A stretch of 64,000 nt of DNA from NCBI GenBank assembly GCA_964562055.1, contig CAZLSE010000001.1, positions 28,062 through 92,061 on the forward strand, in the 5' to 3' direction. The notes beneath the pieces are model-generated. The model had not been told where the DNA came from. It searched no databases and saw only the letters and a list, made by a program, of their open reading frames with translations. Position numbers and translations under genes: made by a program. Source of the DNA: an uncultured Gammaproteobacteria bacterium (lineage in GTDB: Bacteria; Patescibacteriota; Microgenomatia; UBA1406; GWC2-37-13). Of the stretch, positions 2,250-52,543 are shown one piece after another (the first letter of the stretch is position 1; each line of letters starts with the position of its first letter).

Positions 2250-2250
2250 A

Positions 2251-8200: not shown

Positions 8201-9405
8201 TTAAATGCTCCTGTGGTACTGGTAAGGGCAGACCATGTGCCAGTTGAAATGTGATAGCGGTAATAATGTACCTGATTTCCCCCTCGGCTAAAGTACAGAT
8301 ACCCATTATGATAAATGAGGTCGGATCCCGTACCCGGCGTAGCATTGCTTGCTGGAAGATCTGTCGGGCCTACAAATGAATTTAAATCTGTATTATATTT
8401 CCAGAATTCATAAGAATTGTTACCACGAAATACATATATATAGCCATCTCCAGAATGATATACGCTACCAACATATCGCGTTGTTTGAGGTGTATTGGTA
8501 AGCGTCAACCAAGTGTTTGTGCTTATCTTATAGCGATAAAAGCTTTGAGTGCCCTGATCACGTGTTACAAATATTTCATCATTTTTTATAGTGATTGTGT
8601 GATCTTCATTCATTGCTCCGGGTGCCACAGCGAGAGCGGGGCCAAGGGTTGATGTGGTGTGCCAGGTATTCGCAGCTATGTTATACCGATACATTGTGGT
8701 CGTATTCGCGCCACGCAGTGCATATAAATTACCTGAGTAATACACTAGACCGGCGCCCACGCCGATTGTTAGTGCAGGACTAGATAACGTTGACCACGTA
8801 TTCGTACCGGGAGTATATTTCCAAAAATCCGAAGTTGTTGTTCCTCGCAAGCAATAGATGGCTGACAAATCTGTCGCACATGATGTGCCCCCATACACTA
8901 AATCAGGCATACTCGATCTGTTTTCCCACGTATTAGTCTCAATGTTGTAGCGCGCAAAATCTTTTTGATACCCTCCAAACTCTGCATATATATAGCCATC
9001 AAGATACACTAATTGCGCCCCGGGATATGAATATCGAGGCGCTATGGCAAGGGTCTTCCAGGTATTATTTACCGGATCATAACGGATAAAGAGATTGTCA
9101 GCATTGAGAAGGAGATAGATAAACGTTCCATCTGATGCAATTCCCACCTGATCACCAAGCAGTATATTAGGTGTCCGCCAGGCCCGTGCACCCCATGATC
9201 CATCTGCTTTTAACTTTATTTCACCCTCTTTAGTGGTCGCTTCAACACCAATTCCTTGCCCATTAGTAAAGTCAACCGATGAAGTAAGTGTTCTGCTTGC
9301 CGCTTGAACCGATGTAGGAAGTAAAGAAAAAATTTGTGTATATGCTCCAAATAAACTAACAGAGTGTAAGCATAAAATAAGCAACGAAACAATTCTTTTC
9401 CGCAT
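2251..9405 (-). CDS. Giant secreted surface protein (2384 aa): two Kelch-like beta-propeller arrays, jelly-roll-like modules, multiple FN3 domains
   Basis: N-terminal signal peptide MRKRIVSLLILCLHSVSLFGAYT. More than 20 blades end in Y/W-x-Y-x4-5-W (YRYNIETNTWE, WKYTPGTNTWS, YEYNIATDVWT and others). FN3-like units are present (SGYYVYYG...TYYLRLQVKDASGN, DGYYVYFG...TYYLKVRTKDEAGN). The C-terminus has tandem FN3 units of the IEWSTDRTSNSFVKYG...ATYYYKV type. Confidence 0.85.
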   Translation of the reverse strand: MRKRIVSLLILCLHSVSLFGAYTQIFSLLPTSVQAASRTLTSSVDFTNGQGIGVEATTKEGEIKLKADGSWGARAWRTPNILLGDQVGIASDGTFIYLLLNADNLFIRYDPVNNTWKTLAIAPRYSYPGAQLVYLDGYIYAEFGGYQKDFARYNIETNTWENRSSMPDLVYGGTSCATDLSAIYCLRGTTTSDFWKYTPGTNTWSTLSSPALTIGVGAGLVYYSGNLYALRGANTTTMYRYNIAANTWHTTSTLGPALAVAPGAMNEDHTITIKNDEIFVTRDQGTQSFYRYKISTNTWLTLTNTPQTTRYVGSVYHSGDGYIYVFRGNNSYEFWKYNTDLNSFVGPTDLPASNATPGTGSDLIYHNGYLYFSRGGNQVHYYRYHISTGTWSALTSTTGAFNDDIKGVRAGDIIYYMRGGGTTTFYSYNTVGGSWSTLAVAPATIGAGGTLAYPGTGDFIYATRGLTTRSFYRYQISTNTWSDVAVADLPDNADAAVGSRLISDGTDIYAIPGNGMSKLMKYAIGTDTWSEISNLPFAPYYGTDVSYYSGKLFFQAGYYKNGFYEYTIATNTWRQLDNIQTYGPNDLGPYNGGSLEIDSTTGIAYSLSGQSILHMYQYTPTAYNYPITGTWTSETIDLTYVTSWTSLTSTVSTPNDSAITFETRTSADRITWSSWEAVASSVIASPVKKYIQIRATLSATADRTQTPTLQSIVINYVGDEGNPSNPTGFSGLSQAAGGVSISSGQSYRYQSPYFSWTGAADAESAVSGYYVYYGTDSGANPESEGSFQTTSTYTTTADMAQGQTYYLRLQVKDASGNTSSPTTGFIYTYIGVSPPQTVTQTTSAEFGTGTTDTVNVTNDSIRLESKAGFWQQERVALSPVAKNYGSDLAYSSSDNKLYMFPGNTNTFYEYNIATDVWTAKATMPAVGYIGGDVVEGPSGYLYALRGQNTTAFWSYNISANTWSDGAVVDAPQNVFYGGASVFDGSQYIYALKGNSDDTFMRYDTQADSWEVLANVDFGTPDNQINNLIYNGGDLAIKGNDKVYAIQGNARSGFAEYDTATNTWTPLPNLPILANGGARIEYDATTNAIYLLGGNGKVDFYKYDIDSETWSTLPDAPASIGNGSTLKNVNGTLYVLRGGGNTQFYKFNIAKNSWVIPTVGLFGGWFRGADSRNFSLGADIVKGDGNNFYITRGNFDNIFVRYNATSGETTKLADAPSGFYIGAELVYLPDVNKIYATANSYNRRLYVYDIATDVWSEEVSDPPPLDVGEGSSLAYDGSQYIYWLRGASTQSFYRFNRLGSAGSKWSTALSNIPATAQYGSDMIIKDDYLYASRGNTQLGFYRYGPLSGSASWNDAVVADLPSGSTIGNSGFLVDGGDSIYATRGINTNAALQYSLSGNTWSTIANVPAQITSGGAGASNGTDKMFVIAGAGTNTFGNGLYSYIMQTANTSFESTGEFISSTFDLSSVYRFARLHVTANVPTGTVITSYTRSSDNGSTWDEWQQTVSEKTVGTSRSYKISSTPKRYIQVKIVLSSSDNIYSPTINDFSVSYYQDADPPLNPSQVTGYTTSTMAATLTTNTWYNYPSPHFAWPLEGAVNGATDSANGSGIDGYYVYFGASASADVVNEGVYQSGNTYTASGLTAGQTYYLKVRTKDEAGNISTTDYDAFIYKFNDQRPDNPTTLTVDPPGPSNINSYTFAWSGGTPDVSYCYKTGAIGSVEQCTNDTSVASISAYQEGNNIFYLRAKDIAGNYASTYATVVYKLLETAPSAPQNLEVNPVNSTNGEFSFTWDPPAYFGGTQAGLRYYYSVNALPTAQNVTLVGSQTYLPLGTYATQVDENTMYVVAKDEVGNISYNAYTSVNFYANTSAPGVPTNMDIADLSVKDEEKWRLVVSWDQPASSGSAGVSYYNVYHTTTADASCTTGFESFTKVAETRLTSFVHTNLTQVENYYCVKACNITNQCSTVSTTVHMLPDGKWEIAPTLVSSVSATVKTKSAVIEWSTDRTSNSFVKYGKTSGDYNNEAGSSDQVVAHSISLNSLDPGATYYYKVLWTDEDGNTGESEELSFTTNAAPFVSNVKFSRVNINSAQITFTIKSAIKASVQYGKTISYGSVESISTSKTETAYTVEITNLTEGTLYHMRIAGEDDESNVYYSDDYTFETLPIPKLTNIRVQQVVGMPTAIIRLLWTSNTPINSIVTYYPTNTPQLATDNISLVLKRNHEVILNNLADEMDYTILIKGKDAVGNEAKMETRTLKTANDVRPPEIQNLNVESTIIGVGEGARAQIVVTWDTDEPATTQVEYGQGTGSTYNQTTQEDTNKTTNHTVTITGLSPSKIYHLRALSKDKANNLGQSLDTVIITPKSTKDALNLVIENLSKTFGFLKGATILR

Positions 9406-16564: not shown

Positions 16565-19500
16565 CTATGATTTTACCACAAAGTTAGCTATCTTCCCTTT
16601 TACATAAATAAGTTTGTATTGCTTACCCTCAAGATATTTTTTCAAGCCAACATCGGATTGTACTGTTTTTTCAACCATATCTTGTGTCGGCTCTCCCTGG
16701 ATGGTTATTGTTCCTCTGAATTTGCCATTTATCTGAATCGGAACAGTTACTGACGTCTGTTTTATATCAACTTTTGTTTGGGTTGGCCATTGTGAACTAT
16801 GAATCGACGATGTTTCTCCATACATTCTCCATATTTTCTCAGTCACAAACGGTGCAAATGGTGCTAATATTTGAAGAAATTTCTTTGCTTCATCCCATGA
16901 AAGACTTTCGACCTTCGACTTTTGACTTTCGACTACAGACTCATATTCATTCAGAAATTCCATCATGGCGGCTATTGCGGTATTAAATTTGGTCTGTGCA
17001 ATATCATCTCCCACTTTTTGAATAGTCTTGTTGAGCTTGGCAACCAGTTCAGAATCGGACTTTTGACTTTCGACCTTGGACTTTTGACTTGTATAGAGAT
17101 TCCACACTCTTTTTATAAATCGGTGTGCACCCTGAAGAGCAGATGTTGACCACGCAATTTCCATATTAAAAGGGGCCATAAACATCTCATAGATTCTAAG
17201 CGTATCCGCTCCATATTGGGCAACCACATCATCGGGATTAATGGTGTTTCCCCACGACTTACTCATTTTTCGGTGATCTTCAGCAAGCACCATGCCGACA
17301 TTCCTAAGTCGTAAAAATGGTTCTGGAAAGGTAAGGAGCCCCAAATCCTGAAGAGCCTTCACCCAAAACCGCGCGTACAATAAATGGAGCACAGCATGTT
17401 CTGCTCCACCCAAATACCAGTCAACCGGTAACCAACCAGCGTCCTTCGAGCTCCTAGAGTTTTGACTAGCAAGCCACTCATTTTTCAAATTTTGATATTT
17501 GATTTTTGATTTTTGATTTTTTACTCCAATTTGCATCACAAATTGGAGAAAGTACCAACAACTTCCCGCCCAGTTAGGCATGGTGTCTGTTTCACGCGAT
17601 GCCTTACCGCCACACAGTGGACACGACACTTCTTTAAATCCGCTTATTGCCGTTAATGGCGACTCACCTGTGTCGGTTGGCTCGTACGATTTTGTATAAG
17701 GAAGTTCAAGGGGTAGTTCCGACTCATCAATCATGGTCCATCCCTTTACTGAGCGTACCTCAATAAACCGCAGTAACTCAAATTGTTCTTTGCTGTCTTT
17801 TGTCCCCGCACTAAAATGAGCTTTCCCTGGAACTACATGTACATTTTCCGCTCCAAATATCTGTTCTGCAAACGGTCTCATTTCTTTGGGAAGATATGGG
17901 TCGTTTTCGCCAAACACAACTGTAATTTTTCGCACATTCTTCTTAATCTTTTCCCAATCGATGGCATGATTGTTATAAAGTGTATCGAGTGCGTCGCCTG
18001 TTTTTTGATCAAACGCATTAACTAAGATGGGTTTATATGCGGAATCCACATAAAGCACCGGAGCAACCAAAACAAGCTGATCTATTTTGTTTTCTTGTGC
18101 AATGTGTAGTGCGGTACCCGCTCCGCTTGAATGACCAATAATTATTGATGACGGCCGTGTATATTGTGAGTAGTTTGAGCGTAAAAATGCCATTCTCTCC
18201 TCAAATTTTGGAAGCTTGGCATCCGGTAGAGTTGGCGACACTGCCTCAACTCCACTTAATTTCAGATGATTTACCAGCCATGGAAACCAATTTCCATTCC
18301 CATTACCCCAAGTGCCGTGAATAATGAGTGCGTTCGTATCTTGTCTGTTCTTTTCGCATACATCACAATGAACCATTGGGATAGGTTCACCCCAGTATCG
18401 TTGTCGTGAAAATATCCAGTCACGAAGATGATAGGTTACCGTACGCTTACCCCATCCTTTATCTTCAAGATAGTCCATTACTTTCTGAGTTGCTTCGTGA
18501 ATGTCTAGTCCATTTAAAAATTCAGAGTTAATCATTGTGCCCTCTTCCTCTTGTACCTGTTCTTTTTTGGTGATAAGGCCAGTATCGCCATCTTTTCCTT
18601 TAACAACGCGCAATACATCAATTCCAAACTCTGTAGCAAATTCAAAGTCACGAAGATCATGACCCGGAACGCCCACAACAGCACCAGTCCCAAATCCAGC
18701 CAATACAAAGTCAGAAATCCAAATAGGCATTTCACGTCCGTTTAAGTTATTGATAGCATAAAATCCGGTAAACACACCTGTTTTTTTTCTCCCCTCTGCA
18801 GATCGCTCCATTTCATTTTTTGCTTTAGCTTTCTCAATATAATCTTTAATCTCTTTTAAGTGTGTACCTTCCGCCTTTAATTCTGAACTCAGTAGTTTAC
18901 CTACGAATGGGTGTTCGGGAGCTATAACAATAAACGTTGCCCCAAAATTAGTATCTGGCCGAGTGGTAAAGCAGATAATTGTCTCTGTTGAATCCTTAAT
19001 TGTATACTCAATATTTATCCCCTCTTTCTTGCCAATCCAGTTCCGTTGCATTTCCAATATCCCTCGTGGCCAGTCAAGCAAGTCAAGATCCTTGAGAAGT
19101 CTATCTGCATACGCAGTTATTCTAAAAATCCATTGAGGAAGTTCTTTTTTAGTTATTTCCGACCCACACCGCTCGTGAGTACCATTTGCAAGCACTTCCT
19201 CCTCGGCAAGACCTGTTTTACACTTCGGACAGAAATTTATAGGCGTATTGCGTTTGTACAACAGTCCCATCTTAAAAAACTGCATAAAAAGCCACTGTGT
19301 CCATTTGTAGTAGCTTGGATCGGTGGTAGAAAACTCTCGACTCCAGTCATACGAATACCCAAGCATGTTCATCTGTCTTTTAAAGTTTGCAATATTACCC
19401 GGTACCATATCCATGGGATTTTTTTTCGCTTTAATTGCGGCATTCTCTGCCGGCAACCCAAATGCGTCCCAACCCATAGGATGTAACACATCTTTTCCCG

Positions 19501-19711
19501 TCATTTTAAAATAGCGGGCCAATACATCTGTGCCTGTATATATACGAACGTGACCAACATGAAGTCCAGCTCCTGAGGGATACGGAAACATTGATAGACA
19601 ATATGATTTATTTTCCTGACTTTCGACTGTCGAATAAACCTTTTCCTTCTCCCATAGCTCCAGCATTTTAGCTTCAAATTCTGTTGGGTTATATTTTTCT
19701 GATTCGTCCAT
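16565..19711 (-). CDS. leuS: Leucyl-tRNA synthetase with an inserted alpha/beta-hydrolase domain and several repeat-derived loops
   Basis: HIGH motif (HVGHVRIY), CP1 editing motifs (TTRPDT, GTGAVVGVPGHDLRDFEFA), KMSKS (RKMSKSWGN). The start is set at MDESEKYNPTEFEAKMLELW, which matches the canonical LeuRS N-terminus. Confidence 0.9.
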   Translation of the reverse strand: MDESEKYNPTEFEAKMLELWEKEKVYSTVESQENKSYCLSMFPYPSGAGLHVGHVRIYTGTDVLARYFKMTGKDVLHPMGWDAFGLPAENAAIKAKKNPMDMVPGNIANFKRQMNMLGYSYDWSREFSTTDPSYYKWTQWLFMQFFKMGLLYKRNTPINFCPKCKTGLAEEEVLANGTHERCGSEITKKELPQWIFRITAYADRLLKDLDLLDWPRGILEMQRNWIGKKEGINIEYTIKDSTETIICFTTRPDTNFGATFIVIAPEHPFVGKLLSSELKAEGTHLKEIKDYIEKAKAKNEMERSAEGRKKTGVFTGFYAINNLNGREMPIWISDFVLAGFGTGAVVGVPGHDLRDFEFATEFGIDVLRVVKGKDGDTGLITKKEQVQEEEGTMINSEFLNGLDIHEATQKVMDYLEDKGWGKRTVTYHLRDWIFSRQRYWGEPIPMVHCDVCEKNRQDTNALIIHGTWGNGNGNWFPWLVNHLKLSGVEAVSPTLPDAKLPKFEERMAFLRSNYSQYTRPSSIIIGHSSGAGTALHIAQENKIDQLVLVAPVLYVDSAYKPILVNAFDQKTGDALDTLYNNHAIDWEKIKKNVRKITVVFGENDPYLPKEMRPFAEQIFGAENVHVVPGKAHFSAGTKDSKEQFELLRFIEVRSVKGWTMIDESELPLELPYTKSYEPTDTGESPLTAISGFKEVSCPLCGGKASRETDTMPNWAGSCWYFLQFVMQIGVKNQKSKIKYQNLKNEWLASQNSRSSKDAGWLPVDWYLGGAEHAVLHLLYARFWVKALQDLGLLTFPEPFLRLRNVGMVLAEDHRKMSKSWGNTINPDDVVAQYGADTLRIYEMFMAPFNMEIAWSTSALQGAHRFIKRVWNLYTSQKSKVESQKSDSELVAKLNKTIQKVGDDIAQTKFNTAIAAMMEFLNEYESVVESQKSKVESLSWDEAKKFLQILAPFAPFVTEKIWRMYGETSSIHSSQWPTQTKVDIKQTSVTVPIQINGKFRGTITIQGEPTQDMVEKTVQSDVGLKKYLEGKQYKLIYVKGKIANFVVKS
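16906..16940. repeat. Heptamer micro-array, TTTCGAC family, 5 units, inside leuS
   Basis: TTTCGAC CTTCGAC TTTTGAC TTTCGAC TACAGAC on the + strand. Encodes VVESQKSKVESLS on the minus strand. Confidence 0.8.
17054..17088. repeat. Heptamer micro-array, TTTCGAC family, 5 units, inside leuS
   Basis: ATCGGAC TTTTGAC TTTCGAC CTTGGAC TTTTGAC. Encodes TSQKSKVESQKSDSE. Confidence 0.8.
17484..17525. repeat. Heptamer micro-array, TTTGATT variant, 6 units, inside leuS
   Basis: TTCAAAT TTTGATA TTTGATT TTTGATT TTTGATT TTTTACT. Encodes KNQKSKIKYQNLKNE. Confidence 0.75.
19614..19634. repeat. Heptamer micro-array, TTTCGAC family, 3 units, inside the leuS 5' region
   Basis: TCCTGAC TTTCGAC TGTCGAA. Encodes STVESQE. 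Confidence 0.6.
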
Positions 19712-19772
19712 ATATATCAATTTTGGTATAAAATTGTAAATTTTTATGTACTTAATAAATGAATATAATTCA

Positions 19773-20792
19773 TTATTCAAATAGCTTTAGTAGATTATAC
19801 ACCTTCTCTTTTACTTTTTCTGTCACCTCAATTGCCACAATCCCTCTGTCCCTCATACCATACATCACTCGTGTCCCGAGCGGAGATATAAGTACAACGG
19901 GTAGAACCAATAAGTCTTCTTCTCCATCAATAATGAGTTGTTTTATGGCTCTTTTATGCTCTAAACTAATTAATTTGAAAAGTGCTTTAATTGAATCTTG
20001 TGAAATTGTTCCTTTTTCATTTAGAGCATATAGACAATCTTTTTGTATAATTTTCTCAAGATATTCTTTGTTTAGGGCTTTTCGGAGAGTTTTTTTATCT
20101 ATTACCGAAAAAGTGGGGGAAAAACCTCTTTTTACAAATTCATGTGTCACTACATCGCCTACAGTTATCCACATTGTGTCCCCCAGAGTTGTGGCTAAAT
20201 TGTGTAACGATGCAGTTTTTGTGAATAAATACTCCTCAATAGTCCGAAAAGAGTGGCCCAGTGGCATTCTTAAAGCTGGTATAAGTGATTTTGGCAGATG
20301 ATGTACTTTTCTGCTAAATAATAGGCTTCTGTATGATGTTCCATGCCTATTTATGTATCCCTGCCTGATGCGTGTTGATGATATTACCACATTATCATTA
20401 CCTTTTTTTAGGTCTATAAAAACCACTGAAAGGGGCTTCATGCCGAGCTCAACGCGTTTTTTATTGATAAGATTTGCCCCTTTTTCTGTATCTTGTGTAA
20501 TAACAATTGCATCGATAGAACGCTCTAAAATGGTTGGACCATAGATATCATTAATCCTTACAATAGTGAATTGTCTATTAAAAACCTGTGCATAGGTGCT
20601 TACATTTTTTCTGCGCGTAACCCACGAATCATGACATTCACGTTTGAGTTTTTGGAGAGCCATTTTTTGTGAAGTTATGCCGATAGTAACTTTTTGCCCG
20701 ACTTTAAAGCACTTTCGTATCAACTGTTTATGACCTTCATGAAACGTATCAAACGTGCCTCCGCATACAACATGGGAAAACATAGAGCACAA
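19773..20792 (-). CDS. Fusion of archaeal-type phosphopantetheine adenylyltransferase (cytidylyltransferase fold) and DUF359-type GTP-dependent dephospho-CoA kinase
   Basis: The N-terminal half has CGGTFDTFHEGHKQL (nucleotidyltransferase HxGH) and ISSTRIR. The C-terminal half has GDVVTHEF...SVIDKKTLRK...IDGEEDLLVLPVVLISPLGTRVMYGMRDRGIV, matching the DUF359/COG1909 pattern as I remember it. Confidence 0.65.
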   Translation of the reverse strand: MCSMFSHVVCGGTFDTFHEGHKQLIRKCFKVGQKVTIGITSQKMALQKLKRECHDSWVTRRKNVSTYAQVFNRQFTIVRINDIYGPTILERSIDAIVITQDTEKGANLINKKRVELGMKPLSVVFIDLKKGNDNVVISSTRIRQGYINRHGTSYRSLLFSRKVHHLPKSLIPALRMPLGHSFRTIEEYLFTKTASLHNLATTLGDTMWITVGDVVTHEFVKRGFSPTFSVIDKKTLRKALNKEYLEKIIQKDCLYALNEKGTISQDSIKALFKLISLEHKRAIKQLIIDGEEDLLVLPVVLISPLGTRVMYGMRDRGIVAIEVTEKVKEKVYNLLKLFE

Positions 20793-21946: not shown

Positions 21947-23065
21947 TTACCTCGTCACCTGATAACTCTTGACAGTCTCCAGAAGTTTTTTTGCTTCCTC
22001 ATTTTTTTCAAAATGCGCATGCACTGGACAAAGTAACCGGTCAAGATAGTCTGATACTGCAGTTTTTAAGTCCATTGGGTGAAGCTTTTTTTCTGCAAAA
22101 GCAGTTTCAAGCTCGGCATAGGTTGCAAAGCGGAGTGTGCCCCCCCATTTTTCGGGCCGTTCGATAACAAACTCAGTAATACCAAGACGATCAAATGACT
22201 CAAAGATAATATATTTACAATACTCAAGCACAGGATTTTCCTTTATATCACCTTCGAGGCAGTACGCTTTATTTATTTTACGCTTAATATCTTCTGTGGT
22301 ATCGGTCATAAAAATTGCACTGTCCGGCATTGATTTTGACATTTTCCTCTCTATTGTTTCCTGAATTTTTGCATTTTGCATTTCACTTTCGACTTCCGAC
22401 TTTAGACTTTTGACTTTTTGTAGTCCCATTAGCATGTGGTGACTTACAACAACCGGCTTCCAATACCCAAGTTGCGGCCCCACTTCGCGCGCGAGCATAT
22501 TTACTTTTCGTTGATCCATTCCCAGTTGTGTAATCTTTGCGCCAAGCATAAAAATATCTGCAACCTGCATACACGAATAGATAATATGCGCGCCCGTAAG
22601 TTTTTCAAGCGACTCCTCACGCCCCATCATCTCTGCAGTACGAACAAATCGTTTTAGAGCGTTTGACTTTCCCACTTGTAAAACCAACTTCCAATAATCA
22701 GGATTTTTAGCCATATCAGATGCCCACATAAATTCAACGTGGTCAAGATCCATTCCTGACGCACGCCACACCTCAATAAAATAACGTCCGACTGTTTTTA
22801 TCTTTTCAAGATCACCGCCCATTTTATTATTCGCCATCGCATGCCAGTCTGCAACCCACATGCGGAACTTCACACCCGCTTTAATCATCTTGTTTACATT
22901 TATTGCACGAAGAAGACCTTGGGCGATATGAATCTGTCCCGATGGTTCAAATCCATCATACGCAATTAGTTCTTCTCCACTTTCTAGGTAGTTTTTTAAC
23001 TCATCACTTCCAATAATCTCTTCACCAACTTGATTGATAAGATTGAATTTGTCTTGTGTATTCAT
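21947..23065 (-). CDS. tyrS: Tyrosyl-tRNA synthetase, archaeal/eukaryote-like type
   Basis: YDGFEPSGQIHIAQGL (HIGH-equivalent), VADWHAMANNKMGGDLEKIKTVGRYFIEVW, GMDQRKVNMLARE and KMSKS closely parallel the plant-type TyrRS as I recall it. The start is set at MNTQDKF. Confidence 0.85.
   Translation of the reverse strand: MNTQDKFNLINQVGEEIIGSDELKNYLESGEELIAYDGFEPSGQIHIAQGLLRAINVNKMIKAGVKFRMWVADWHAMANNKMGGDLEKIKTVGRYFIEVWRASGMDLDHVEFMWASDMAKNPDYWKLVLQVGKSNALKRFVRTAEMMGREESLEKLTGAHIIYSCMQVADIFMLGAKITQLGMDQRKVNMLAREVGPQLGYWKPVVVSHHMLMGLQKVKSLKSEVESEMQNAKIQETIERKMSKSMPDSAIFMTDTTEDIKRKINKAYCLEGDIKENPVLEYCKYIIFESFDRLGITEFVIERPEKWGGTLRFATYAELETAFAEKKLHPMDLKTAVSDYLDRLLCPVHAHFEKNEEAKKLLETVKSYQVTR
22380..22414. 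repeat. Heptamer micro-array, TTTCGAC family, 5 units, inside tyrS next to KMSKS
   Basis: ATTTCAC TTTCGAC TTCCGAC TTTAGAC TTTTGAC. Encodes KVKSLKSEVESE. Confidence 0.8.
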
Positions 23066-29050: not shown

Positions 29051-31000
29051 ATGACAAACATCACCGACCTACAAACACTTGCCAAGCGTGTGCGAAAAAA
29101 TATTGTTACCTCTACAACTGCAGCGGGAACAGGACATCCTTCTTCATCTCTTTCTGCTGTTGAGCTTACTGTTCCGCTCTTTTTTGACGGGTACTTCAAG
29201 CAGGATACTACGCATCCGGAATATATTTCAAACGACCGTTTTGTTTTATCGAAGGGGCATGCTGCGCCCCTCTTATTTTCACTCTACGAGGCGGCGGGTG
29301 TGATTACCGAAAAAGAACTTCTTACTCTTCGTAAGTTTGATTCACGACTCCAAGGCCACCCAACCCCCGAGTTCCCTTATGCAGATGTTACAACGGGCAG
29401 TTTAGGGCAAGGGCTTTCGGTGGCAGTTGGTATGGCGATGGGAATACTAAAAAAATTTCAAATTTTAAATTCTAAATTTCAAATTCCGCGGGTTTATGTT
29501 CTTCTGGGTGATTCAGAGTTTGCAGAGGGACAAAATTATGAAGCACTCCAGCTTGCCGGACACTATTCGCTTTCCAACCTTATTGCCGTACTTGATGTGA
29601 ATCGGCTTGGACAACGCGGGGAAACTCAGCTCGGATGGGACGTGAAGACATATAAAAAACGTTTAGAGTCGTTTGGATGGGATGTAGTAGTAATAGAGAA
29701 TGGGAATTCTCTGGAGGAAGTATCTGCAGTGTATAGGTCTCATCTCACCGCACAAAGATCAAAACCGCTCATGCTAATTGCTAAAACAAAAAAAGGTGCG
29801 GGCGTGCAGTTTATGGAAGATAAAGACGGATGGCATGGTAAACCTATTCCGGGGAATCAACTTGAAGAAGCTTTGCGTGTTATTGGAGATTTTGACACTA
29901 CTATTGTGGGAACCATTACGAAACCATCAATTACAAATGACAAATTACAAATAACAAATCAATCCTCAAATGCCAATGACCAAACGTTACACGTTACACG
30001 TTACACGCTACACGACAAAGTAGCCACCCGTGAGGCGTATGGTCAAGCGCTTGCAGACTTGACACAAAAAAACAAGGATGTAATTGCACTTGATGCTGAA
30101 ACATCCAACTCCACCTATGCAGAGTTTGTTAAAAAAGAAACGCCCGAGCAATTTATTGAAACATATATTGCTGAACAAAATATGGTCTCGATGGGCTTGG
30201 GTATGTCTAAGGTGGGCTGGATACCGTTTGTGTCGAGCTTTGCCGCATTCCTCACCCGTGCATTTGACCAGATCCGTATGGCTCAGTATTCAAAACCCAA
30301 TATGACTGTGGTTGGCTCACATGCTGGTTGTTCCATTGGACCGGACGGGGCTTCACAAATGGCACTTGAAGATATTGCCATGATGCGAAGCGTACGTGAA
30401 AGTGTTGTGCTCTATCCATCAGACGCAGTCTCTACCTATGTTCTAATTCATCAGGTTGCAGGTCTTACTGGTCTTCACTATATTCGTACCACACGTGAAA
30501 AAACCCCGGTACTATATGGACCCGACGAGCTGTTTCCTGTTGGAGGACTCAAAATACACTATGCGTCTCGTGTAACGCACAACGTAAATCGTGAAGCGTC
30601 TGGACAAAGAGATAATACGTTACACGCTACACGCTACACGACCGACGCGGTAATTATAGGCGCGGGTATAACGCTCCATGAGGCGCTCAAGGCGCAAAAA
30701 ATACTCAGTGAAAAGAAAGTTAATACTGTCGTAGTAGATTTATACTCGGTAAAACCACTTGACGGCAACACTATTGCAAAACTTGCTCAAAACACAAAAA
30801 AACTAATAGTTGTTGAGGACCACCACGCCGCTGGCGGCATTGGTGAAGCCGTGCTATCTGAACTTTCGACTTTCGACCTTCGACTTTCGACTCAATTTAT
30901 CCATTTATGTGTCCGCAAAGAACCCCGCTCAGGAACGCCTGAGGAGCTTATGCGGTATGAGGAGATTGATGCCGAGGCTATAATAAAAAAAGTAATATAG
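29051..31000 (+). CDS. tkt: Transketolase, N- and C-terminal halves fused, with repeat-derived insertions
   Basis: TPP-binding half (GHPSSSLS, GSLGQGLSVAVGMA, LLGDSEFAEGQNYEA) and pyrimidine-binding/C-terminal half (KVATREAYGQAL, YIAEQNMVSMGLGM, GPDGASQMALEDIAMMR). Confidence 0.9.
   Translation: MTNITDLQTLAKRVRKNIVTSTTAAGTGHPSSSLSAVELTVPLFFDGYFKQDTTHPEYISNDRFVLSKGHAAPLLFSLYEAAGVITEKELLTLRKFDSRLQGHPTPEFPYADVTTGSLGQGLSVAVGMAMGILKKFQILNSKFQIPRVYVLLGDSEFAEGQNYEALQLAGHYSLSNLIAVLDVNRLGQRGETQLGWDVKTYKKRLESFGWDVVVIENGNSLEEVSAVYRSHLTAQRSKPLMLIAKTKKGAGVQFMEDKDGWHGKPIPGNQLEEALRVIGDFDTTIVGTITKPSITNDKLQITNQSSNANDQTLHVTRYTLHDKVATREAYGQALADLTQKNKDVIALDAETSNSTYAEFVKKETPEQFIETYIAEQNMVSMGLGMSKVGWIPFVSSFAAFLTRAFDQIRMAQYSKPNMTVVGSHAGCSIGPDGASQMALEDIAMMRSVRESVVLYPSDAVSTYVLIHQVAGLTGLHYIRTTREKTPVLYGPDELFPVGGLKIHYASRVTHNVNREASGQRDNTLHATRYTTDAVIIGAGITLHEALKAQKILSEKKVNTVVVDLYSVKPLDGNTIAKLAQNTKKLIVVEDHHAAGGIGEAVLSELSTFDLRLSTQFIHLCVRKEPRSGTPEELMRYEEIDAEAIIKKVI
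29454..29488. repeat. Heptamer micro-array, AATTTYA family, 5 units, inside tkt
   Basis: AATTTCA AATTTTA AATTCTA AATTTCA AATTCCG. Encodes KKFQILNSKFQIP. Confidence 0.75.
29930..30016. repeat. Two abutting heptamer arrays (ATNACAA x5-7, then ACGYTAC x4.7) forming the inter-domain linker of tkt
   Basis: ATTACAA ATGACAA ATTACAA ATAACAA ATCAATC CTCAAAT..., then ACGTTAC ACGTTAC ACGTTAC ACGCTAC ACGAC (29984-30016). Encodes ITNDKLQITNQSSNANDQTLHVTRYTLHD. Confidence 0.8.
30617..30642. repeat. Heptamer micro-array, ACGYTAC family, 3.7 units, inside tkt
   Basis: ACGTTAC ACGCTAC ACGCTAC ACGAC. Encodes TLHATRYTT. An inverted copy CGTGTAACG lies at 30569-30577. Confidence 0.8.
30864..30891. repeat. Heptamer micro-array, TTTCGAC family, 4 units, inside tkt
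   Basis: TTTCGAC TTTCGAC CTTCGAC TTTCGAC. Here it is read in the sense orientation and encodes LSTFDLRLST. Confidence 0.85.
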
Positions 31001-43780: not shown

Positions 43781-44635
43781 ACTGGATTATTTCAAGTATT
43801 CTAATGTCTTGTTCTTCAATTCTTTACTACCTTCTGATTCGTTACGGTCAAAAACGTGGGGTAGCGGAAAAGGCAGTTGCAGAGCACGCACAACAGGCAG
43901 GAGTTCCCACATACACAACCTTGGCGATAGATGATTCAAAAACTCATTTCCCATTTGACTATATGATCATATCGCGAGAACCGGGCAATAATATGAAAAA
44001 TAGCGGTCCTTACGACGCTACTACAGACAAAGTACTTATAGAAGACACCGGCAGACTACTCGCACTCACCCATTCAGTAAAAACACGCAATTTTGGTTTT
44101 TTTAATAATGATGTAGCTAAAAAAAACAGGCAAACTCGAATGGATACATCCCACGTGGAGTGATCATATGTTTGCCTCGCTTAACGACAACCTCGCCTAC
44201 CTTGAATCTCGGTCGTCAATAACACAAAAAGAACGTAAGAATATCGAACGTATATTTTCAGAGAATACACACATAATTGTGTGTGACAGTCCCCGACTTA
44301 TTCATAATGATCTTGCAGACTGGAACGAGCTTACCGATGGCAAAAAAATTACTGCATTTGTTGATTGGGATGAGACATTTTCAGGTGATCCAGTGTGCGA
44401 CTTTGCAGCATACTCCGTATTTTTTAACGATAAGCGGCTTGAAAACCTTAAACGAGGAGATGAAACTGTAACAAAACTTCCGCCCGATTTTGAAGCAAAA
44501 TTTCATATGTATCGACTCCGCTATATCATCTCAAAGATGACGCTTCGCACGAAACGGTCTGTGTTTGATAACAGTGAGCTTGTTCAGACACTCCTTGCCT
44601 ATTCACATACGCTGTTACAACAAGAGTTTGAGTAG
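43777..44635 (+). pseudogene. Aminoglycoside/choline-kinase-type phosphotransferase (APH family), frameshifted in an A8 run and N-terminally truncated
   Basis: Catalytic loop LIHNDLADWN (HxDxxxxN) and FVDWDETFSGDPVCDFA. The frame switch must occur between 44117 and 44126, which is the A8 run at 44119-44126. The repaired reading is FFNNDVAKKTGKLEWIHPTWSDHMFASL. Confidence 0.6.
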
Positions 44636-48886: not shown

Positions 48887-49093
48887 TTATCGGGTTTTAG
48901 CCAACATCTCCAAACCTTTGGTCAATAAAACATCAATTATACCTATATACAATCCAATAATCAAGGATATCCCCAGTACAATTGTGGTGAGACGAATTGT
49001 ATTTTTGCGAGTAGGCCATGTTACCTTTTTTAATTCCTCCATTATCCCATTTGCAAACTGAGGTCGAAATGATGGTTTTGACATGAATACCAT
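48887..49093 (-). CDS. secE: Preprotein translocase subunit SecE
   Basis: Small single-TM protein (EELKKVTWPTRKNTIRLTTIVLGISLIIGLYIGIID) directly upstream of nusG. Confidence 0.8.
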   Translation of the reverse strand: MVFMSKPSFRPQFANGIMEELKKVTWPTRKNTIRLTTIVLGISLIIGLYIGIIDVLLTKGLEMLAKTR

Positions 49094-49127
49094 TGTAGCA
49101 TATTTTTTTCATTATAATGAGTAATAT

Positions 49128-49760
49128 ATGACCAAAGAATTACTTCATGCCGTGCTCCTAGTATTAAGCATTGCATTAATGTTTATATTCCCCCAAACAC
49201 CACTTCGAACATATGAACTTGAGATTGCCGCATTGCTTCTTATTGTATTATTTGCAGTTCGTAAATTATCTTTATTTTCTAAAAAAACAAGATTGTTTGA
49301 ATCGGTGGTATTTACCCTCATTATTATGGGTATTGTAAATACCTCTGGTGGAATTGCCTCCCCCTATTTTTTTCTCATTTACTTTCTCCTTTTTGCCCTC
49401 ACACTCCTGCTTGAACCGATCATTTCAATTATTACGACCGTTACATTAATGATATTTTACGTGTTTACTATTTCTGGTACTGCAACGATATCACAGCTTA
49501 TTCCAATATTCTCACTTGCCCTCATGACCCCTTTTGCACTTATCATGGGCAACGAATATGAAGAAACAAAACGATTAAGAAAAACAATGTCGAGACAAAC
49601 AGAGAATACATTTCTTTTCTTATCGCTTCTGATGAAAAACCACATAAAGTCTATTCAGGAGCAACTAGACAACTTTGTTGGCGATCATCAACTCCAGTCC
49701 ATTCAAAAATCAATTCATTCCATGCGAAAACAGATTGATATGTTTGAGAAGCAACAGTAA
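49128..49760 (+). CDS. Polytopic membrane protein with a C-terminal helical tail, unknown function
   Basis: Five hydrophobic segments followed by a charged helical region. I found no catalytic motif. Confidence 0.45.
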   Translation: MTKELLHAVLLVLSIALMFIFPQTPLRTYELEIAALLLIVLFAVRKLSLFSKKTRLFESVVFTLIIMGIVNTSGGIASPYFFLIYFLLFALTLLLEPIISIITTVTLMIFYVFTISGTATISQLIPIFSLALMTPFALIMGNEYEETKRLRKTMSRQTENTFLFLSLLMKNHIKSIQEQLDNFVGDHQLQSIQKSIHSMRKQIDMFEKQQ

Positions 49761-49763
49761 TGA

Positions 49764-49938
49764 GTTTATAAAGTTCATAACGTTTATAAAGTTTGTAAAG
49801 TCTGAATGACGAAAGGCAAAAACTACAAGTTACAAGCTATAATGCAACAAAATATTTACAGCGCACTAAAGCGATACAGTTTAGCGTATGTGTTGTCGTT
49901 TGGGCTATTGGTTTTGAGCTTTCAGCTTTTAGCTATTC
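49764..49938. repeat. Composite micro-array leader A: 9-mer GTTTATAAA x4-5, heptamer GYTACAA x4, spacer, heptamer GCTTTNA x5
   Basis: GTTTATAAA GTTCATAAC GTTTATAAA GTTTGTAAA GTCTGAATG (49764-49808). ACTACAA GTTACAA GCTATAA TGCAACA (49822-49849). GCTATTG GTTTTGA GCTTTCA GCTTTTA GCTATTC (49904-49938). Confidence 0.75.
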
Positions 49939-50686
49939 CCCTGTACGCAGTCAACATGGACTCAAATGAATATCGCATCCAATTTGGAACAATCGGTACT
50001 GGAGGTGGAAAAATGGAAGACAATGTTGATAATACCTATACCCTTACCTCAACTCTCGGGCAGGCAGCTTCAAAAGAATTTCAGTCTAATGGATTTATTG
50101 TAAAGGCGGGTTTTCAATATATCTATTCACGCACACCGTTTACATTTTCACTTTCTACGTTACAGATGGATTTTGGTACGCTCATACCCAATACGCCAGC
50201 CACACTCCCCCTCACCTTATCTGTTTCGTTTGGTGGAACGGGTCAGTATGTGGTAACTGCACGAGCCGATAGCCCTCTTACACGTCGTGCTGGTTTACAA
50301 ACAATACCGTTTACCTCTGTAATGGCGGTGTAGATACCTGCACTATTTCTGCCGCAAAAACATGGACGTCTGCTTCTGCGTATGGATTCGGATATTCCAT
50401 GGCAGGCGAAGATATCCCGGCCGACTTTACGAGTGGCAATCACTTTCGTCCGTTTGCCAATCTTCTCGCAACAGAACCCCCTCAAATTGTTATGTCGGGC
50501 GTCAACGTAACCGACAATATCACGCCTACTCCCAATCCCTCCTATTCACCCGCGCCTCAGTTGACAGGAGTTGAGCGTGACACAGTACATGAATCTATCA
50601 TGACCATGAAAGTAAACGTGTCCGCTATCCAACCCGCAGGAAGTTATACGTCCGTTATACGTTTCCTTGCAACTCCATCGTTTTAA
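49806..50686 (+). pseudogene. Secreted surface protein (paralogue of the C-terminal part of 55014-56540), frameshifted
   Basis: Signal peptide KRYSLAYVLSFGLLVLSFQLLAIPLYA. The second frame is open from 50273 and reads CNGGVDTCTISAAKTWTSASAYGFGYSMAGEDIPADF...PAGSYTSVIRFLATPSF, paralleling CDGASCTESTSGDWASATNNGLGYSL...PAGYYYNKVKYTASAIF. Confidence 0.5.
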
Positions 50687-50687
50687 A

Positions 50688-51767
50688 ATGAAAAGTTATG
50701 TAGTTATACAGTTTTTAAAGTTTGTAAAGTCTATAAAGTTTATAAAGCTACAAGCTACAAGTTACAAGACACAAGTTGTAAGTTGCGGTTTAGTGCAGTT
50801 GATATCATTTGGATTTTTAGCTTTGTGCTTTCAGCTTTCAGCTAATACCATATATGCTCAACAGGTGCGATTATCAATCGATCCTCCCATTGTACAGTCA
50901 AAAATAAAACCCGGAAAATCGATACTGGTTGCCTATACCGTAGAAAATGGGGGCGACCCTGTAGCTGTGCAGTTTGTTATCTATGCATTTCAACCAGTTG
51001 GCCGTACAGGCGGTGTTGAACTCATTGAACTTGACGGACCCATTGAGTTTACACTTGAGAATGCCGATGTTTCCCTCAAAACTCCTTTTTTCTTTAATTC
51101 CAAGGAACGAAAACAAGCACTGGTTCGTATTTCTATTCCTTCAACAGCACCTGAGGGAGATTATTATTACATGATCGTTGCGGAAACAGTGCCACATGCA
51201 CCGTCCGAAGGAAGATCACAATCTCAAACTAGCGCGCAAATAGGCGCACCACTCCTCATATCGGTTACCGAGTCGGGACTTACAGAGGTGCAGGCCCGCA
51301 TAGCAGAATTTAGCGTATCCAATACATTTGATATTACGATTGCGAACAAAAAAATGAAATTCATCGATTCATCTCAAATGGTGCCTGTAACACTTGTTAT
51401 TGAAAACCAAGGCAATAACGTCATTCAGCCAAAAGGCACAATAACCGTTCGTTATGGGAAAACTACCAAAACAATAAACTTGCTCGAACAAAACATTTTA
51501 AAAAAATCTCAACGAATAATTTATACGAGACCGTCAACCAATGCGCCCGCACATGTGAGTGCTATGCTATCTGGATTTGGTATTGGGAAACATACGGTAA
51601 CCTCCCAGGTATCATATGGCGCATTTACCCCAGTTCAGTTTGCTCATGTGGAACTGTACGCAGTTCCCATCCGAATGATAGGACTGGGAATTATTACCCT
51701 TCTTTTCAGCAGTAGTATTGTCTTATACTCCCATAAAAAGAAACGAACCAATAAGGTATCCAATTAG
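50688..51767 (+). CDS. Cell-surface protein with two Ig-like domains and a C-terminal TM anchor (DUF916/DUF3324-like architecture)
   Basis: Signal peptide, RLSIDPPIVQSKIKPGKSILVAYTVENGG, YYYMIVAE, APLLISV, VTLVIENQGNNVIQPKGTITV, and C-terminal TM IGLGIITLLFSSSIVLY followed by KKKR. The start is 1 nt after the upstream TAA. Confidence 0.55.
   Translation: MKSYVVIQFLKFVKSIKFIKLQATSYKTQVVSCGLVQLISFGFLALCFQLSANTIYAQQVRLSIDPPIVQSKIKPGKSILVAYTVENGGDPVAVQFVIYAFQPVGRTGGVELIELDGPIEFTLENADVSLKTPFFFNSKERKQALVRISIPSTAPEGDYYYMIVAETVPHAPSEGRSQSQTSAQIGAPLLISVTESGLTEVQARIAEFSVSNTFDITIANKKMKFIDSSQMVPVTLVIENQGNNVIQPKGTITVRYGKTTKTINLLEQNILKKSQRIIYTRPSTNAPAHVSAMLSGFGIGKHTVTSQVSYGAFTPVQFAHVELYAVPIRMIGLGIITLLFSSSIVLYSHKKKRTNKVSN
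50702..50847. repeat. Composite micro-array leader B, with the same module order as leader A
   Basis: AGTTATACA GTTTTTAAA GTTTGTAAA GTCTATAAA GTTTATAAA (50702-50746). GCTACAA GCTACAA GTTACAA GACACAA GTTGTAA GTTGCGG (50747-50788). GCTTTGT GCTTTCA GCTTTCA GCTAATA (50820-50847). Confidence 0.75.
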
Positions 51768-51850
51768 CCTGATCCAATAGGTTAATGTGAGTGAAATGTG
51801 GTTTATAAACCATTGCAGGTTCACAGTAACACTTCATACAGTAACCTTAT

Positions 51851-52543
51851 ATGGATGGTTTTTTATCTTCATGCAAGCCGCTCGTTACACGAATAATTGA
51901 ATCGCGATTTAAATGGGAAATTGTACTTATGTGTATAAGCGGCATCACAATCGTGACAACTCTTTTTATATATTTTCAAGTTCCAAATCCGTCAATAGAA
52001 AAACAGTCGGATTTTACCGTTGGAAATGAATTTCCAACACCAACAACACCTGTAGTACAAAAATTCGTTTATGTTGATGTTTCCGGCGCAGTTAATAATC
52101 CTGACGTGTATAAATTGAGATATGGAGCTCGTCTGTATGATGCAGTTGAAAAGGCGGGCGGACTGTCTACATATGCAGATGAAGCGTTTATTAAACGCAA
52201 TATTAATTTTGCGCGAATACTTTCAGATCAAGAAAAAGTGTATATTCCAACCTTTGATGATGTTCAGTTTAGACATGTTGATGAATATGTGCGTGTATTT
52301 AACGAGACATTTATCCCGCCCACCATAAACCTAAACAACAATCAAGAACAATCTCTCCGCATTAACATTAACTCAAGCCCCGTCGAGGAACTGGACAGCT
52401 TGCCCGGTATTGGTCCGGTATTAGGACAAAAAATTATTGATGGGCGTCCTTATGAATCTATAGACCATTTGCTTCAAAAAAAGATTGTCAGTGAGTCAGT
52501 TTTTGAAAAAATTAAACACGCTATTACTGTTTCGGATGAGTGA
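51851..52543 (+). CDS. comEA: Competence protein ComEA (SLBB plus helix-hairpin-helix DNA-binding)
   Basis: N-terminal TM, VDVSGAVNNPDVYKLRYGARLYDAVEKAGG, and a C-terminal HhH (ININSSPVEELDSLPGIGPVLGQKIIDGRPY). Confidence 0.8.
   Translation: MDGFLSSCKPLVTRIIESRFKWEIVLMCISGITIVTTLFIYFQVPNPSIEKQSDFTVGNEFPTPTTPVVQKFVYVDVSGAVNNPDVYKLRYGARLYDAVEKAGGLSTYADEAFIKRNINFARILSDQEKVYIPTFDDVQFRHVDEYVRVFNETFIPPTINLNNNQEQSLRININSSPVEELDSLPGIGPVLGQKIIDGRPYESIDHLLQKKIVSESVFEKIKHAITVSDE

Follow-up and report, generated by a model that had tools for sequence, protein, structure and literature searches.

Two adjacent genes for predicted surface proteins, here called gene A and gene B, lie in a 64,000-nt stretch of bacterial DNA (contig CAZLSE010000001.1, positions 28,062 to 92,061; hereafter, the window). 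Both open with a leader assembled from short tandem arrays of 9-nt and 7-nt units. What are such arrays doing at the start of surface-protein genes? The original prediction saw in them a substrate for slipped-strand phase variation or else a regulatory or RNA-structural element. Our analysis points elsewhere: the leaders are probably copies of repeat cassettes, akin to the short tandemly repeated repetitive (STRR) sequences of cyanobacteria, that colonize insertion-tolerant sequence and are copied between nearby sites. The host is apparently a Microgenomates-type bacterium of the candidate phyla radiation (CPR), and its transketolase homologues belong to Microgenomates/Roizmanbacteria.

Two leaders built from the same arrays

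Tandem Repeats Finder (TRF) detected three arrays in each of the two leaders. When leader A (49740-49960) and leader B (50680-50870) were aligned, they shared 79% identity over about 190 nt with a single 30-nt indel, and because of this alignment we regard them as homologous copies rather than as arrays of independent origin. Mismatch-tolerant pattern searches for the nonamer, GYTACAA and GCTTTNA units matched at the two leaders only, where 0.00, 0.81 and 0.08 chance occurrences, respectively, were expected in the window. TRF, pattern searches and alignment together confirm that the leader is duplicated, with the same arrays in the same order.

All of these arrays read on the plus strand. The first consists of AGTTTATAA-type nonamers, with 4.3 units in leader A (49763..49801) and 4.9 in leader B (50704..50747). 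In leader A it begins 3 nt past the upstream stop codon (49758-49760), inside a 45-nt spacer before the ATG at 49806. The second, GYTACAA array had been predicted to hold four to six units in both leaders, which is true of leader B alone. There, six in-frame units span 42 nt (50745..50786; GCTACAA GCTACAA GTTACAA GACACAA GTTGTAA GTTGCGG), part of which TRF reports as AAGCTAC x3.4 at 50745-50768. For leader A, the pattern search and the leader alignment recovered a remnant of only two to three units (49823..49843; CTACAAG TTACAAG CTATAAT), which reads ..NYKLQAIM.. if the gene starts at ATG 49806. The third array has GCTTTNA units (TTTCAGC in TRF), 3.1 of them at 49913..49934 and 4.1 at 50815..50843. 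Translation bears out the claim that it encodes the hydrophobic core (h-region) of each signal peptide, LLVLSFQLLAI in gene A and FLALCFQLSAN in gene B. The leader units are imperfect throughout (3-6 units, 81-94% matches). The first two arrays had been assigned to the 5' untranslated region or extreme N-terminus; in gene A the nonamers do occupy the spacer, whereas in gene B both arrays lie within the open reading frame (ORF), past the start that aligns with those of its orthologues. A promoter and terminator scan placed no site within the arrays, and an Rfam covariance search of 49000-52000 (E<=1) returned no relevant match. Its sole match, CRISPR-DR37 at 51663-51697, is sub-threshold (23.4 bits against a gathering score of 40).

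We compared the locus with 13 related loci (L001-L008, L129, L130-L132 and L141), 12 of them distinct, since L129 is on the same contig as L002. Six span the whole gene block and three (L005, L007 and L008) are short contigs; gene order is kept at every locus over the stretch covered. The closest, L130-L132, are strains whose gene B is 96% identical to that of the window, and L130 has 91% DNA identity over 19.6 kb. In L003 and L006, the signal peptides of both genes are short and plain and lack arrays; the start codon of gene A overlaps the upstream stop (ATGA), and that of gene B comes at most about 20 nt from the gene A stop. L001 and L002, with a gene B 70% identical, carry nonamers in leader A only, as a degenerate array of three units. 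The leader A nonamer array is absent from L003, L006 and L130-L132, and the arrays in gene B are confined to the window and L130-L132. By this comparison, the arrays are lineage-specific.

Aligned to its orthologues in L001, L003 and L006, gene B shows its cassette as an in-frame insertion of 93 nt (50699..50791, plus strand, edges approximate to a few nucleotides) that reads as a Lys-rich extension of the signal-peptide n-region. The insertion holds the nonamer and GYTACAA arrays and sits between ATGAAAA and the h-region. It adds 31 residues (..FLKFVKSIKFIKLQATSYKTQVV..) to the n-region, making a protein of 359 rather than 328 aa and a signal peptide of 54-57 residues, compared to 25-40 in most homologues. 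Among the strains, one nonamer unit (AGTCTATAA, residues KSI) is missing in L130 and L132, giving 356 instead of 359 aa. The 42-nt heptamer block has equal length in all four strains and differs by substitutions only. The GCTTTNA block of gene B is invariant in L130-L132 and also in L001, and an S/CFQL(L/S)A motif recurs in the leaders of both gene A and gene B homologues; these comparisons show the GCTTTNA array to be an older, conserved h-region of a signal-peptide type common to both gene families. The gene B cleavage motif, with YA before the cut and QQ after it, is likewise conserved among homologues.

Leader A of L130-L132, by contrast with that of the window, is wholly different and has an array of its own (GTTATAT GTTATAC GCTACAC GTTACAC). 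Heptamer-derived peptides (FKISNLKF, KAKSLKLKAQSLRLKAK) also occur in the signal-peptide n-regions of gene A and gene B homologues from other species. From the comparison of loci, therefore, the leaders are mosaic and evolve fast, while the mature proteins are conserved. Exact look-ups of the window's own proteins found no contigs, and a metagenome scan with a gene A-anchored pattern returned one already known contig and no extra strains.

A genome-wide population of micro-arrays

The leaders are not the only arrays in this DNA. With TRF, we counted 14 period-7 arrays of at least three copies in the window, against a mean of 0.1 in 20 dinucleotide shuffles and a single one in a 50-kb stretch of Escherichia coli. 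Period-9 arrays numbered three, against 0.05 in the shuffles and none in the E. coli stretch, and 7 and 9 are the only enriched periods. Thirteen of the 18 window arrays lie in frame inside ORFs of all kinds, including those for leucyl-tRNA synthetase (LeuRS), a class-Ib aminoacyl-tRNA synthetase, transketolase and a P-type ATPase. A few unit families recur, GTCGAAA-type units at four sites, GYTACAM-type at four, GCTTTNA at two and the nonamer at two, and these families are also present in other strains and species; the GTCGAAA-type and GYTACAC/GYTACAA-type units are of the kinds that the leaders carry. As to the proposed search for further copies, heptamer families recur at other sites of the window, and the three-array leader motifs occur at the two leaders only. 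The repeat module is not specific to surface genes.

Three arrays lie in the LeuRS ORF on the minus strand (16903-16934, 17058-17090 and 17490-17521, within 16903..17521) and encode ..ESQKSKVES.., ..SQKSKVESQKS.. and ..KNQKSKIKYQN..; the third falls in a 15-residue insertion relative to Thermus thermophilus LeuRS. The same ORF (16565-19780, minus strand) has a separate insertion of about 207 residues at 17735-18355, absent from the T. thermophilus enzyme, that matches the Pfam Ser_hydrolase and alpha/beta-hydrolase families (E 2e-10). In the class-Ib synthetase ORF, an array of 5.4 TTTCGAC-type units (22367..22417, minus strand) is identical in strain L140. The transketolase ORF carries five arrays on the plus strand (29453..30892, starting at 29453, 29929, 29984, 30617 and 30862), among them ACGTTAC/ACGCTAC units related to the leader GYTACAA units. 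Across homologues, the peptides encoded by these transketolase arrays are indels in loops and in an inter-domain linker. One loop (about 30560-30650) holds three different cassettes in three strains with about 90% protein identity, and one of these cassettes, in L139, is a copy of the linker cassette 600 nt upstream in the same gene. Other arrays within housekeeping ORFs keep the same length from strain to strain.

We counted 23 indels between the window and L130; leaving aside two large insertions and a variable gene where the alignment ends, they cluster at micro-arrays. One of them is a 55-nt cassette (..GGCTTTTAGCTTGTAATTTGTATCTTGTAACTTC.., with CTTGTAA units) between a cmk-like gene and rplA, present in L130 only (about 6294-6397, corresponding to about 46977 in the window), with units that are leader heptamers in reverse complement. 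L130 also has about 1.7 kb of extra sequence (1018 + 658 nt) at window positions of about 43851-43863. The alignments show that arrays have been gained, lost, replaced and copied to nearby non-homologous sites within the time in which strains and species diverge. We rejected 4-nt palindromic cores as a general rule for the heptamers; their enrichment is nominal among the window arrays (10 of 14, P=0.015) and does not extend to 178 arrays at other loci.

The nonamers belong to a family that reaches well beyond this genome. We scanned one genome per species for at least three tandem 9-mers of the form GT[CT]N[AG]TAA[AC], with TA, TG and CA variants mixed; this pattern proved too permissive. Both window nonamer arrays match the three-unit pattern of this family, GTTYRTAAA, and the scan found at least 120 nonamer loci in Bacteroidota, Ignavibacteria, many Patescibacteria, Gammaproteobacteria, Firestonebacteria and one cyanobacterium. 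The analysis thereby exposes GTTYRTAAA as a nonamer motif that forms arrays in many phyla. The window's own genome is not among the matches listed, and all nonamer counts that follow are counts among those matches. The GTTYRTAAA family accounts for 153 of 194 period-9 arrays. The case for its enrichment across phyla is suggestive, short of proof. The longest arrays have 13 units, single arrays mix GTTTATAAA, GTTTGTAAA and GTTCATAAA variants, and the pattern's free position 4 is almost always T or C. Heptamer arrays at nonamer loci are as dense as in the window, 26 of them lying no more than 50 nt from a nonamer array. Inverted partner arrays accompany about 10-15% of nonamer arrays by eye and 9 of 131 by a strict pattern test. 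The 131 arrays have no orientation preference relative to flanking ORFs, whose calls are crude, and their neighbors are ordinary housekeeping genes of no particular functional class.

Rfam searches of ten nonamer-array loci returned tRNAs only, and a literature search on the repeat sequences returned only chance primer matches. We dropped a link to phages, because viral contigs yielded only 5 nonamer matches in 2.9 million. Array starts also cluster at ORF ends, an effect that is in part or wholly artifactual, since the typical 5' boundary TAGTTGAAAGTTTGTAA has stops in all three frames and the ORF caller extends ORFs to that point. Nor did we adopt a coding reading of the nonamer, in which Y/R variation would be synonymous or conservative in an F-(I/V)-K frame, because the opposite strand behaves alike and most of these arrays are intergenic.

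Nonamer loci in other phyla (among L009-L128; for example, L017, L028, L036, L038, L040, L041 and L101) have several further features. Unrelated arrays of heptamers or octamers (CATCCAG x8, GAGAGTG and TCACCAGT) often follow the nonamers. Some nonamer arrays have inverted arrays at their flanks or contain GC-rich hairpins that resemble terminators (L098 and L099). Several lie at contig ends, which implies many copies per genome. In a Saccharibacteria metagenome-assembled genome (L071), a type-IV-pilin-like gene (..RGFSLVEILVA..), whose product is unusually extended at the N-terminus, follows 13 nt downstream of a nonamer array at about 73-98.

Heptamer arrays as such have a history. Mazel reportedly described the STRR heptamers of cyanobacteria in 1990, and Mrazek, in a 2007 study that PMC4679880 cites, is said to have described "long simple sequence repeats" of 5-11 nt in prokaryotes. 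The window arrays resemble both in being dispersed tandem heptamers with few unit families per genome, a strong preference for period 7, a patchy phylogeny and no known function. An excess of arrays of one period and a small set of recurring, dispersed unit families, the marks of an STRR population, are both seen here. The predominantly intergenic location known from cyanobacteria is not, as most window arrays are in frame within coding sequence, including that of essential enzymes and signal peptides; the host, moreover, is a Microgenomates-type CPR bacterium, and a nonamer family joins the heptamers. In-frame repeat DNA that adds tolerated peptide segments and turns over rapidly among close relatives is also familiar from the palindromic elements of Rickettsia, which are dispersed palindromes of 100-150 nt, and from the perfect tandem repeats of Borgs, whose genic units come in multiples of three. 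The window units are instead 7-9 nt long, and the heptamers keep frame by blocks of three or six units.

A further relative is the TAACTGA heptamer of Beggiatoaceae, Cyanobacteria and Bacteroidetes, whose intergenic direct repeats comprise 2 to 43 copies (MacGregor 2015, PMC4679880). There, too, one unit occurs in distant phyla, close strains differ by indels in one-unit steps, other heptamer arrays adjoin and the neighboring genes have no functional pattern. The units differ (GTTYRTAAA, GYTACAA, GTCGAAA and others here), and so does the setting: in BOGUAY the TAACTGA repeats are mostly intergenic and oriented to start codons, whereas many window arrays are coding and the 131 nonamer arrays lack an orientation bias. 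Dispersed heptamer arrays without known function are therefore already on record for cyanobacteria, Beggiatoaceae and Bacteroidetes. New are the CPR host, a group whose heptamer repeats a literature search found in no paper, the massive occurrence of in-frame arrays within coding regions and signal peptides, where strains swap cassettes, the widespread nonamer family and a foldback arrangement of the arrays. After decades unexplained, heptamer arrays are now found in a CPR genome, in frame within essential enzymes and pilus signal peptides, and turning over between strains.

Switch, regulator, mobile element or passenger

If the arrays were a phase-variable switch, gain or loss of heptamer units would shift the 5' reading frame and turn the pilin (gene A) and its partner (gene B) on and off. 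Non-triplet repeats do form part of the 5' coding sequence of gene B and of the opening codons of gene A, both genes encode surface structures, and gene A is frameshifted in the window. The classic case is similar in kind: the CTCTT repeats of Neisseria opa genes are coding, lie in the signal-peptide region and drive slipped-strand phase variation, so that here and there non-triplet tandem repeats encode the hydrophobic part of a surface protein's signal peptide. However, opa repeats are perfect and numerous, and within populations they gain or lose single units and so switch the frame, while those of the window are imperfect, only 3-6 units long, and form heptamer blocks of invariant length across strains and species. 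The check for unit-number polymorphism between strains did come out positive, with two of four strains lacking exactly one nonamer unit, but this sole length variant is 9 nt long and in frame. The heptamer and GCTTTNA blocks keep their length in the four strains, and the GCTTTNA block is unchanged even in a species with 70% identity of the gene B protein. Gene A owes its frameshift to the loss of one base outside the repeats. Finally, the same heptamer families sit inside LeuRS, the class-Ib synthetase and transketolase and are length-stable there between strains; frequent 7-nt slippage in those essential enzymes would be lethal, which argues against switching. We found no frame-changing variation between strains, no long, near-perfect tract and no restriction to dispensable genes, as a contingency locus would have. 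Phase variation, which the original prediction set beside a regulatory or RNA-structural role, is on this evidence very unlikely, and finding repeats where a surface gene begins is by itself no evidence of it.

A cis-regulatory element on the polycistronic mRNA or its DNA has a better claim, and we consider it possible, if unlikely. The A/U-rich arrays would then bind protein, with general nucleic-acid-binding proteins such as ribosomal protein S1, cold-shock proteins or a nucleoid protein as conceivable candidates, or the 5' and 3' arrays would pair in a hairpin that tunes translation re-initiation or mRNA stability. Such a role is plausible because Shine-Dalgarno motifs are nearly absent (1 of 42 genes) and because TAACTGA arrays, often found just upstream of start codons in ribosome-binding-site-poor genomes, have prompted a regulatory proposal (PMC4679880). 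The arrays stand directly past stop codons and before or at starts, and the nonamer motif, with its degenerate positions, is conserved across phyla. In leader B, moreover, the GYTACAA array (5' arm) and the GCTTTNA array at 50815-50838 (3' arm) form an imperfect inverted repeat, with 24-nt arms that are 71% complementary and 47 nt apart, and L141 repeats this layout with significant folding. Yet 6 of 100 shuffles equal the leader B repeat, and the window leaders fold no better than shuffled sequence (z -0.03 and -0.27 for whole leaders, -0.68 and -1.05 for sub-regions). The arrays are inverted complements clearly in L141 and only marginally in the window. The structural role once suggested, for RNA or for DNA, is weakly supported. 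Close orthologues have the same genes without arrays, strains at 91% DNA identity have another leader A altogether, many arrays lie within coding sequence, and the 131 nonamer arrays prefer neither an orientation nor a class of neighbor.

The copying of cassettes might also be the work of a dedicated mobile micro-element, moved by a nuclease, recombinase or reverse transcriptase that acts in trans and recognizes the repeat units, and spread horizontally between phyla. The same cassette does appear at non-homologous sites (leaders A and B; the transketolase linker and loop in L139), the 55-nt cassette of L130 is polymorphic for presence and absence, and identical nonamer units occur in distant phyla, often several per genome and at contig ends, some with the inverted partners counted above. 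But no target-site duplication, defined terminus or associated gene was found, the neighbors are unrelated housekeeping genes, viral contigs hold next to no matches, and short-distance copying is explained equally well by template switching or gene conversion. We judge this explanation quite improbable.

We therefore return to STRR-like cassettes in insertion-tolerant sequence as the probable account. A cassette would join an array of GTTYRTAAA nonamers to a downstream array of GYTACAA heptamers and would be drawn from a genome-wide, lineage-specific population of 7-nt and 9-nt micro-arrays. Such arrays would arise and spread by replication slippage and template switching, forming imperfect foldbacks, and would accumulate wherever extra sequence is tolerated: in intergenic spacers, in linkers and surface loops of housekeeping enzymes, and in the cleavable signal peptides of both pilus genes. 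The extension of gene B would leave with the signal peptide, so that the mature protein is presumably unaffected. The two leaders would be alike because of ectopic copying, through template switching or gene conversion, with the signal-peptide sequence that they share as its anchor. Most arrays would then be neutral passengers with no switching function.

Several observations weigh against so passive a picture. The nonamer unit is the same in many phyla, its variation is confined to the Y/R positions, and variants are mixed within arrays, a pattern that looks more like a recognized motif than like plain slippage. At L141, from another species, both adjacent leaders pair a 5' array with a 3' array of the GCTTTNA type across a spacer. 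The 5' arrays are AAAGCTT x7.7 and AGCTCAA x4.1, and the 3' arrays CTTTCAG and CTTTTAG; the arms are 76-84% complementary, which no shuffle matched, and folding reaches z -2.85 and -1.95. Leaders without 5' arrays have no such complementarity. That this architecture recurs at both genes is a hint of selection or of a directed process. Lastly, the gene B insertion is open and in frame in all four strains, and the arrays may have a modulatory effect on translation or export.

These foldbacks also bear on what the arrays encode. When translated, the A-rich arm gives a Lys-rich n-region, and the T-rich arm gives a Phe/Leu-rich h-region; L141 is an example, with KAKSLKLKAQSLRLKAK encoded by AAAGCTT x7.7 and FSFQLSA by CTTTCAG x3.3. 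It is conceivable, though we hold it doubtful, that the cassettes are a distinct class of foldback tandem repeat, in which a heptamer or nonamer array has an inverted partner, actively copied within genomes and spread across phyla, that can create or replace Sec signal peptides and drives the swapping of leaders at these pilus genes. If so, the dynamics of repeats would generate protein sequence, export signals included, in tiny genomes.

The genes behind the leaders

Gene A and gene B stand in a plus-strand block with a gene for a 210-aa hydrophobic protein ahead of them and comEA and comEC behind; secE, nusG, rplK and rplA precede the block on the minus strand. The 210-aa gene (49128..49760, plus strand), identified from the ORF list and synteny, is the first of the block formed with gene A, gene B and comEA, and has a sigma-70-like promoter match ahead of it (49078-49106). 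Its product matched nothing in Pfam or NCBIfam. It lies directly upstream of gene A at all related loci, and its stop overlaps the gene A start (ATGA) in L003, L006, L130-L132 and L141.

Gene A (49806..50686, plus strand) encodes a Pam-like pilin with a PamT-like N-terminal part and a Pam-pilin-C-like C-terminus, both matched below the NCBIfam cut-offs. The PamT model scores its orthologues at 36-46 bits (cut-off 240; E 6e-9 to 5e-12) and the Pam_pilin_C model at 18-23 bits (cut-off 55). These scores, which miss the curated cut-offs, indicate that the protein may be at best a distant relative of Pam pilins. The reading frame is split by a 1-nt deletion near 50317, with frame 0 open up to 50333 and frame 2 from 50273. 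The site reads TTTACC-TCTG against TTTACCATCTG in L130-L132 and L001, and lies outside any repeat or homopolymer. As gene A is intact in every relative (254-289 aa), the frameshift marks either a pseudogene in this metagenome-assembled genome or an assembly error.

Gene B (50688..51767, plus strand) encodes 359 aa, with a long signal peptide, two predicted immunoglobulin (Ig)-like beta-sandwich domains and a C-terminal membrane helix followed by KKKR; homologues have 316-360 aa. Profile searches gave no family match for it, and a sequence search of the PDB matched neither gene. The predicted structure of an orthologue (P0002; pLDDT 87.8) has two Ig-like sandwiches and a C-terminal helix. Foldseek ranked WxLIP, RbmA and the chaperones CsuC, CfaA, Caf1M and FimC highest in the PDB, with E-values of 1e-8 to 1e-5 and TM-scores of only 0.3-0.55. 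Going by this model, gene B would encode a membrane-anchored, chaperone-like protein with two Ig domains that resembles these chaperones, WxLIP and RbmA. The Pam-model matches of gene A and the structural matches of gene B justify the description of both as secreted or surface proteins.

The Pam pilus system of CPR bacteria has an N-terminal signal peptide on every component, and its pilins have been reported in Microgenomatia (bioRxiv 10.64898/2026.03.03.709456). The locus resembles it in pairing a pilin that has PamT-like and Pam-pilin-C-like regions with a protein that, by its predicted two Ig domains and C-terminal membrane helix, may recall PamC/D or PamR. It differs in scoring far below the NCBIfam cut-offs and in consisting of only two such genes plus the 210-aa membrane protein, which may be a third component of a Pam-like locus. 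No PamA- or PamB-type major pilin was seen beside gene A and gene B.

Elsewhere in the window, a very large ORF of about 2385 aa occupies 2250-9405 on the minus strand. The count of Shine-Dalgarno-like motifs given above was made on the 42 long ORFs of the whole window, and a TATAAT-like hexamer lies 7-15 nt upstream of many window starts; this suggests that leaderless or very short-leader mRNAs are widespread among the window genes.

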